Shown: piece after piece, positions 21,191 to 21,490 of the stretch | Layout of the letters: every line of letters starts with the position of its first letter | How positions within the stretch are numbered: the stretch's first letter is position 1 | Source: a virus | Taxonomy: Duplodnaviria > Heunggongvirae > Uroviricota > Caudoviricetes | IMG/VR virus record: IMGVR_UViG_2675903366_000010 | Span: 1-22,774 of that record | Length of the DNA stretch: 22,774 nucleotides | Strand: one strand, 5' to 3' | Notes under the pieces: generated by a model | Databases searched by the model: none | What the model was told of the DNA's origin: nothing | Seen by the model: only the letters and a program-made list of their open reading frames with translations | Translations under genes and position numbers: made by a program

Positions 21191-21490
21191 AAAAAAAGCC
21201 AGCGACTGACCTGAAAAAGAAGACGCTGGCTAAAAGGCCTTATATGTTTGTAGAGACTTATTTTTCACAGACAGCAATGATGCCTGTCAATATATTATCA
21301 ATATGCGGATTGTTTCAGTTACAGATGCCTTATTAAGGAAAAAAACAGCCAGCACTGACTTTCGGTGGAGAGGTGCTGGCTCAAAAGGATAGATGTACTT
21401 CACATGTTGCTTCTATATGGCAGTACATTTTCTGACAGACAGTGACGGATGTTGTCAAGATATTGTGTCATTTATAACCTGAATCAGGGG
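21191..21490. repeat. Two diverged tandem copies (about 150 bp each) of an element beginning with an A7 run and a long-loop hairpin
   Basis: Copy A 21191-21338, copy B 21339-21490; hairpin stems AGCCAGCG/CGCTGGCT (21197-21231) and AGCCAGCAC/GTGCTGGCT (21347-21381) differ by a compensatory pair; shared blocks TTTTC-GACAGACAG and TGTCAA-ATATT. Confidence 0.5.

Follow-up and report, generated by a model that had tools for sequence, protein, structure and literature searches.

The interval between the sialate esterase gene and the holin gene of the phage studied here is very probably the pasA locus of the lambdoid late region, from which the small RNA PasA is transcribed on the minus strand with two 3′ ends, located at two hairpins that we name B and A. 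The PasA gene, its ends, and its Hfq dependence are already known from published work and are not new. Apparently the one new detail is the tandem relation of the adjacent unit A to pasA, which seems to have gone unnoticed before: judged by sequence comparison, unit A is a diverged tandem paralogue of the pasA/pasC gene and carries a PasC-like hairpin arm. All positions given below refer to the window, i.e. the whole stretch of 22,774 nucleotides analyzed (positions 1 to 22,774 of IMG/VR record IMGVR_UViG_2675903366_000010), unless another record is named.

Genomic context of the locus

The window contains the Stx-phage-like late region of a lambdoid phage. The locus lies between a nanS-p-like esterase gene and a class II holin gene, which is followed by a SAR endolysin gene (Table 1). 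By BLAST, positions 21150-21640 (491 bases) match Escherichia phage 434 (OL657226.1) at 100% identity; for many Stx1a-converting phages and for phage YYZ-2008, the identity is 99.4%. The same bases correspond, with 100% identity and an offset of 722076, to NC_011601 743226-743716, in prophage PP2 of EPEC E2348/69. In the phage 434 record, minus-strand terminators are annotated at window positions 21188-21210 and 21339-21357, along with a plus-strand terminator at 21556-21592. The latter, described in the initial annotation as a separate signal before the holin gene, was recovered by our scan at 21555-21591; it folds at -21.6 kcal/mol and is nearly invariant among the loci compared.

Several other features of the window were recorded. 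From pasA to the holin gene, the sequence is invariant except for one hypervariable spot, a short G-rich stretch (CAGGGGAGGCC) at ~21486-21495, whose G-run differs in length among loci (GGGGTTGG, GGGGGGGG, and others). Just upstream of the esterase gene, positions 19081-19252 (plus strand) are an exact copy of PasD2, a 172-nt sRNA of E2348/69 (NC_011601 741157-741328) homologous to EcOnc13. Over this copy, the GenBank record of phage 434 lists a CDS for a 'putative membrane protein' (window 19097-19285) and a terminator (19226-19254); the CDS is probably a mis-call of the PasD2 sRNA gene. Rfam matches at the gathering level were obtained on the plus strand for isrK (14628-14705), C4 antisense RNA (14731-14815), and the a1/b1 targets (14615-14668), and on the minus strand for the lambda cIII thermoregulator (6974-7032).

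Table 1 Features of the pasA locus and its flanks, with window positions.
Feature	Position	Strand	Description or basis
SASA-family sialate esterase (nanS-p-like) gene	19339..21189	+	Left flank; TAA stop at 21187-21189
RIL-seq target motif CTGATGCTGGA	21157..21167	+	Complementary to the PasA seed; esterase 3′ coding end
PasA, minor 236-nt form	21188..21423	-	Read-through of terminator B to terminator A; Table S6 coordinates
Unit A	21190..21338	-	Diverged tandem paralogue of the pasA/pasC gene, as judged from shuffle tests and covariance model
Terminator A	21190..21231	-	Stem 21197-21207/21221-21231 (10 of 11 pairs), 13-nt loop, U-tract
Unit-A promoter-like elements	21261..21318	-	Putative, from consensus resemblance
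Unit B	21339..21490	-	pasA gene and conserved upstream (promoter-side) block; locus comparison
Terminator B	21339..21381	-	Stem 21347-21355/21373-21381, 17-nt loop, one G, U7 (21339-21345)
PasA, major 85-nt form	21339..21423	-	5′-CUGCCAUAUAG...GCUGGCUGUUUUUUU-3′; Table S6 coordinates; 107-bit covariance model match
pasA promoter-like element	21429..21458	-	Putative, from sequence: TTGACA 21458-21453, 18-nt spacer ending in TGT, CAGAAA 21434-21429
Plus-strand intrinsic terminator	21555..21592	+	Upstream of the holin gene, outside the repeat; 11-bp stem with 7 G-C pairs, T-run
Class II (pin)holin gene	21637..21843	+	Right flank

Identification as the pasA locus

PasA was mapped as an Hfq-dependent sRNA on the minus strand of prophage PP2 in EPEC E2348/69, was validated by northern blot, and was reported to depend on Hfq for its stability (Pearl Mizrahi et al. 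2021, Sci Adv, PMC8550237). Table S6 of that study gives, for the minus strand of NC_011601, a start at 743499, a major end at 743415 (85 nt), and a minor end at 743264 (236 nt), in the orientation '> < >' between E2348C_0688 and E2348C_0689; the 5′ end was derived from read coverage, and a note to the table names EcOnc51/EcOnc52 as the EHEC homologues. Transferred to the window, the 5′ end falls at 21423 and the major 3′ end at 21339, the last U of the U7 that follows hairpin B, whereas the minor 3′ end falls at 21188, in the U-tract that follows hairpin A and abuts the esterase stop codon. The northern probe (GCCAGCACTGACTTTCGGTGGAGAG, Table S6) corresponds to window positions 21348-21372, which form loop B; as the probe has the plus-strand sequence, the RNA that it detected is a minus-strand RNA. 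The published seed (5′-GCCAGCACCU-3′, fig. S5 text) is the 5′ arm of terminator B. In published RIL-seq data, chimeras have their RNA2 at 743267-743294, i.e. at window positions 21191-21218, in the 3′ half of terminator A, and the motif list contains an entry within the esterase 3′ end (E2348C_0688_743175_743305_+, CUGAUGCUGGA).

A recent preprint locates PasA and PasC of Stx-type prophages in the interval that separates the sialic acid esterase gene from the holin-lysozyme operon, and gives NC_011356 (YYZ-2008) and NC_049952 (phage 2B8) as representative carriers (Zhu, Shabalina & Storz, bioRxiv 2026). Both records were among the BLAST matches of the region, which agrees with pasA in sequence, in the match to the probe, in its intergenic position between the esterase gene and the holin-lysozyme genes, and in its opposite orientation. 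A search of positions 21100-21700 against Rfam 15 returned no family at the gathering score (AsxR RF02703, AgvB RF02702, Esr41, and STnc100 included); at E values up to 10, the best match reached 19.7 bits against a gathering score of 53 and the families were unrelated eukaryotic ones. The identification as PasA is thus one by identity to published coordinates and not by a curated model.

Other assignments were tried and rejected. AsxR is found upstream of the esterase gene, at a distance of 282 bp 3′ of stx2AB, and neither AsxR nor AgvB gave a sequence or Rfam match here. HnrS (EcOnc10-12; 66 nt, up to nine copies), considered for unit A, maps downstream of the endopeptidase (Rz) gene in Sakai Sp9. 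Small open reading frames are present on the plus strand (21244-21336, 30 aa) and on the minus strand (21287-21403, 38 aa; 21468-21629, 53 aa), the last being annotated as hypothetical in phage 2B8. The peptides of the plus-strand frames of units A and B are not conserved by eye (30 aa vs 13 aa, in different frames), and the small minus-strand frames run through the terminators.

Two terminators on the minus strand

Read in this direction, the two hairpins have the form of intrinsic terminators, with G+C-rich stems of 9 (B) and 10 (A) pairs that are each followed by U7. Minus-strand folding gave -16.3 kcal/mol for terminator B (z -3.4 vs shuffles) and -16.5 kcal/mol for terminator A (z -6.3), and on either strand both hairpins are far above shuffled stability. 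Our terminator scan, with a loop limit of 3-8 nt for loops that here measure 13-17 nt, listed only a sub-hairpin of A. The initial annotation, which did not recognize the RNA as PasA (EcOnc51/52), had proposed that the hairpins act as terminators for antisense transcription, and the published 3′ ends, which on identical sequence fall at both U-tracts (21339 and 21188), bear this out. In EHEC Sakai, the Hfq-CRAC clusters EcOnc51 (Sp12) and EcOnc52 (Sp4) map to the unit-B terminator region and to terminator A plus the unit-A body, respectively; in Sp4, an IS629 separates unit A from the remainder of the locus.

Unit A is related to the pas genes

The two adjacent units of about 150 bp that were first noticed in the sequence proved to be real (Table 1). 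Each opens with an A7 run (21191-21197 in unit A, 21339-21345 in unit B) and then a hairpin, AGCCAGCGaCT/AGaCGCTGGCT in unit A (21197-21231) and AGCCAGCAC/GTGCTGGCT in unit B (21347-21381), with a spacing of 150 bases from one hairpin to the next. The shared blocks that had been pointed out, ACAGACAG and TGTCAA-ATATT, are found in both units and in register. Outside the hairpins the units are only ~55-60% alike, and the body of unit A is ~20 nt shorter than that of unit B. Such divergence is too great for Tandem Repeats Finder, which at a minimum score of 30 reported nothing for the region. Strict local alignment of the two units gave only the A-run and the 5′ arm, and a softer scoring controlled by shuffles was used instead. 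With this scoring, pairwise alignment of the whole units gave z values of 8.1-8.8, none of 1000 dinucleotide shuffles being as high as observed; for the bodies stripped of A-run and hairpin, z was 3.5-3.8 and between 1 and 5 of 1000 shuffles were as high. The similarity between units A and B is beyond chance.

We then related unit A to the known RNAs with a covariance model (R1) built from 18 PasA, PasA-2, PasC, and T3 RNAs, with no unit-A sequence among them, and scanned the whole window with filters off. PasA scored 107 bits and unit A came second (21189-21270, minus strand), with 32.8 bits and an E value of ~6e-5 over the full length of the model; the same hairpins on the plus strand followed with 16 and 10 bits, and everything else scored below 10 bits. 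Unit A and PasC have in common a 14-nt stretch, UUUUAGCCAGCGUC, which includes the 5′ arm. By these sequence measures the pasA/pasC gene has in unit A a tandem paralogue, diverged and with a PasC-like arm, and the earlier proposal of diverged tandem units is supported by shuffle-controlled alignment and covariance model alike.

A weak likeness to the A-run and hairpin A (AAAAAATGCAGCG...TGCTGGAGATAAATGC) was also seen in the last ~60 coding bases of the esterase gene (21119-21176, plus strand), with a z of ~3; scores as high were reached by 15 of 2000 shuffles and by 3 of 990 tiles of the window. This segment, within which the RIL-seq target motif CUGAUGCUGGA of PasA lies, may be a third, degenerate copy, which, if so, would account for the pairing of the sRNA with the esterase mRNA.

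The tail of unit A (~21306-21338) is a recurrent insertion or breakpoint site (loci L128, L034, L056, L075, L077, and L005). The IS629 of Sakai Sp4 is inserted there after ...ATATGCGGATTG, and several IMG/VR contigs carry another element before AGTTACAGATGC. In the plasmid copies described below, similarity ends at the boundary between units A and B.

Covariation in the terminator stem

We analyzed covariation in the 11-pair stem over 18 distinct terminator variants (alignment A5). Of all cells, 87.9% pair, and shifting the partners by one to three columns lowers this share to 22-48%. Both-sided changes occur at five pairs, and none of 500 shuffles gave a covariation score as high as observed. 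Pair 16-36 is G-C in 12 variants, A-U in 6, and unpaired in none, while pair 15-37 is C-G in 15, U-A in 2, and U-G in 1. Within the locus itself, the compensatory difference reported between the two stems is found at pair 8, where copy A has G-C and copy B has A-T. U-G wobbles are present in 4 variants of the PasC type and in 1 plasmid copy of unit A; such cells pair on the minus strand only and are C-A mismatches on the plus strand, which speaks for the minus-strand RNA being the target of selection.

Selection on the hairpin structure, which the initial annotation had deduced from the change between the two stems, is thus supported by covariance across homologous loci. This support is real but modest, as it comes from few independent events among closely related prophages. 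Single-copy relatives lacking the structure had been put forward as evidence that would speak against such selection; single-unit PasC and T3 loci do exist, but the structure is kept there, so they do not refute it.

Distribution and related loci

By BLAST, the region is present in 699 of 5426 complete E. coli genomes, and 671 of these have the two-unit form. A pattern scan of IMG/VR gave more than 119 loci; 128 loci, with 79 distinct 200-nt units, were taken forward. In this sample, ~70 loci consist of unit A and a PasA-type unit, ~25 of PasC alone, ~10 of T3 alone, two of unit A with T3, and a few of unit A alone, beside IS elements. Every PasA-type unit in the sample has unit A on its esterase side or, at loci interrupted by an IS or by the end of the contig, the tail of that unit; the PasC and T3 types are mostly single-unit.

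Representatives of these forms differ in their arms. The T3 type (strain Z1322) is a single unit located directly after the esterase stop codon, with the arms GCCAGTAC/GTACTGGC, and the PasC type (phage 2B8, strain PRO_A) is a single unit with the arms GCCAGCGCC/GGaCGCTGGC. On pO26-like plasmids, unit A stands alone after an esterase stub, beside IS600, with its usual arms. One IMG/VR locus (L070, unit at ~4672) has a PasC hairpin on a unit-A body, then a normal PasA unit; this recombinant indicates an exchange of hairpins from one unit type to another. The B-type loci vary only within the transcribed positions 21346-21426, and positions 21427-21636 are nearly invariant, a pattern that fits a variable RNA cassette beside a promoter side that is conserved.

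Transcription of the locus

The strand, the two 3′ ends, the Hfq dependence, and many RIL-seq partners of PasA were established on identical sequence (PMC8550237). PasA thus runs opposite to the late operon, and we infer that its transcription begins in the conserved block immediately upstream of 21423. Most transcripts end at hairpin B and its U7, giving the 85-nt, Hfq-stabilized PasA, and a minority would read through terminator B and stop 150 nt further on, at the U-tract of hairpin A, giving the 236-nt form. Read on the plus strand, each hairpin has an A-run before it and AAAAGG, with no U-run, behind it; they are accordingly predicted to be one-way terminators that let late transcription pass to the holin gene. 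Terminator A would then be a fail-safe that catches read-through and shields the esterase gene from antisense transcription, and unit A would also supply a second Hfq-binding 3′ end. Finally, with the seed lying in the terminator stem, a change of seed would need a matching change of the 3′ arm, and this embedding is a likely cause of the compensatory changes between units and alleles (GCCAGCAC, GCCAGUAC, GCCAGCG).

The candidate promoter of pasA (Table 1) is invariant among variants; a consensus promoter scan did not flag it, and its -10 is weak. The PasA 5′ end has also been read as a processing or cleavage product (Zhu et al., bioRxiv 2026). Unit A has two promoter-like elements of its own. 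One has the same layout as that of pasA (TTGACA 21290-21285, N18 ending in TGT, GAAAAA 21266-21261), and the other, detected by the scan, has 9 of 12 consensus matches (CTGAAA 21318-21313, N18, TATATT 21294-21289).

Alternative explanations

These elements bear on whether unit A could be an independent sRNA gene, with its own promoter, an RNA of ~66-93 nt, and a PasC-like seed (GCCAGCGUCUUC), so that the locus would be a two-gene array like OmrA/OmrB and the 236-nt species only part of the RNA ending at terminator A. In unit A, a perfect TTGACA and the CTGTCTGT/TGT block are preserved, together with U7 and an intact hairpin; the unit contains the scanned minus-strand site at 21318-21289, scores as a full-length family member in the covariance model, and persists alone, both on plasmids and beside the IS629 of Sakai Sp4, where EcOnc52 was placed. 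The published RIL-seq data moreover list 'pasA.E2348C_0688.IGR' as a separate entry with sRNA-like features, and a unit-A RNA would have escaped the PasA northern probe, which lies in loop B. However, chimeric reads of that entry are ~40-fold below those of PasA (119 vs 4983), EcOnc52 reads are not assignable to the IS-separated copy since unit A is identical in Sp4 and Sp12, and the published interpretation of the 236-nt form is read-through. We regard an independent unit-A gene as possible but rather doubtful. Equally tentative is its extension to the whole family, in which every PasA-type locus would be a two-gene array, unit A a separate sRNA (GCCAGCGUCUUC), the terminator-embedded seed having been duplicated in tandem, and positions 21119-21176 at the 3′ end of the esterase gene maybe a third, degenerate copy supplying the in-cis target motif. 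Such an array, if true, would have been missed because BLAST with PasA gives no match to unit A and because of the position of the northern probe.

That unit A is instead a decaying pseudogene, left by unequal recombination between prophage alleles, kept by linkage, and terminating transcripts by accident, would be in line with its shortened and diverged body, with its being a frequent site of IS insertion, and with the weakened stem of its plasmid copy. We consider this unlikely: unit A is nearly invariant across many prophages, with hairpin and U-tract intact in almost all copies, the change in the plasmid stem is a minus-strand G-U wobble and not a mismatch, and the 3′ end of unit A is used in vivo and Hfq-bound according to published data. 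Still less probable, and in our judgment very improbable, is that the hairpins act on the plus strand, where they would be stabilizing or processing structures either of the esterase mRNA, at its 3′ end, or of the late transcript, with the U-runs of the minus strand then incidental. The plus-strand folds (-15.5 kcal/mol for A, -20.8 kcal/mol for B) are as stable as the minus-strand ones or more so, and an inner CUUUC/GAGAG helix of hairpin B uses a U-G pair that exists on the plus strand only. Nevertheless, this inner helix is not retained in the T3 and PasC variants, the G-U wobbles of the main stem (4 PasC variants, 1 plasmid) are A-C mismatches on the plus strand, and mapped RNA ends, northern signal, and Hfq binding all belong to the minus strand. 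The hairpins may have a secondary role on the plus strand.

Comparison with known systems

Relative to PasA of E2348/69 PP2, the locus has the same 491 bases, flanking genes, strand, 85- and 236-nt ends, and seed in the terminator arm; it differs from the published descriptions in that the stretch 3′ of PasA is not presented there as a diverged gene copy. PasC (E2348/69 PP5; phage 2B8, NC_049952) is a homologous RNA with the same position, orientation, and upstream block. Unit A has the 5′ arm of PasC and its stem GCCAGCG/CGCUGGC but departs from PasC in the loop and in its body, which is shorter and strongly diverged; the PasC loci, for their part, are single units with a shorter loop (79 nt). 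EcOnc51 and EcOnc52 of EHEC Sakai come from near-identical loci and were defined only as Hfq-bound clusters of ~78 nt (Hfq-CRAC; Tree et al. 2014).

Adjacent homologous units, each with its terminator, are likewise found in OmrA/OmrB of E. coli and PrrF1/PrrF2 of Pseudomonas, where PrrH spans PrrF1-PrrF2 as the 236-nt species spans both units here. In contrast to those pairs, units A and B are far more diverged, and transcription of unit A on its own is only putative. AsxR/AgvB and HnrS resemble PasA in being short, Hfq-bound RNAs of prophage late regions with intrinsic terminators and allelic variation in the pairing region, but their loci differ from the esterase-holin site of PasA.

In summary, PasA ranks with the best-connected sRNAs of the accessory genome in EPEC, and about one in eight of the complete E. 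coli genomes, for the most part those of EHEC and EPEC, carries it. In genome annotation, an ncRNA gene with two terminators is the appropriate label for the region. According to the preprint, pasA copies did not arise by tandem duplication (Zhu et al., bioRxiv 2026), and unit A as a tandem copy would correct the statement that pasA is without tandem duplicates. With the seed in the terminator stem, specificity could change only by paired substitutions, and the diverged neighbor with its PasC-like arm, together with the stem-embedded seed, offers a testable account of how prophage sRNAs may diversify.
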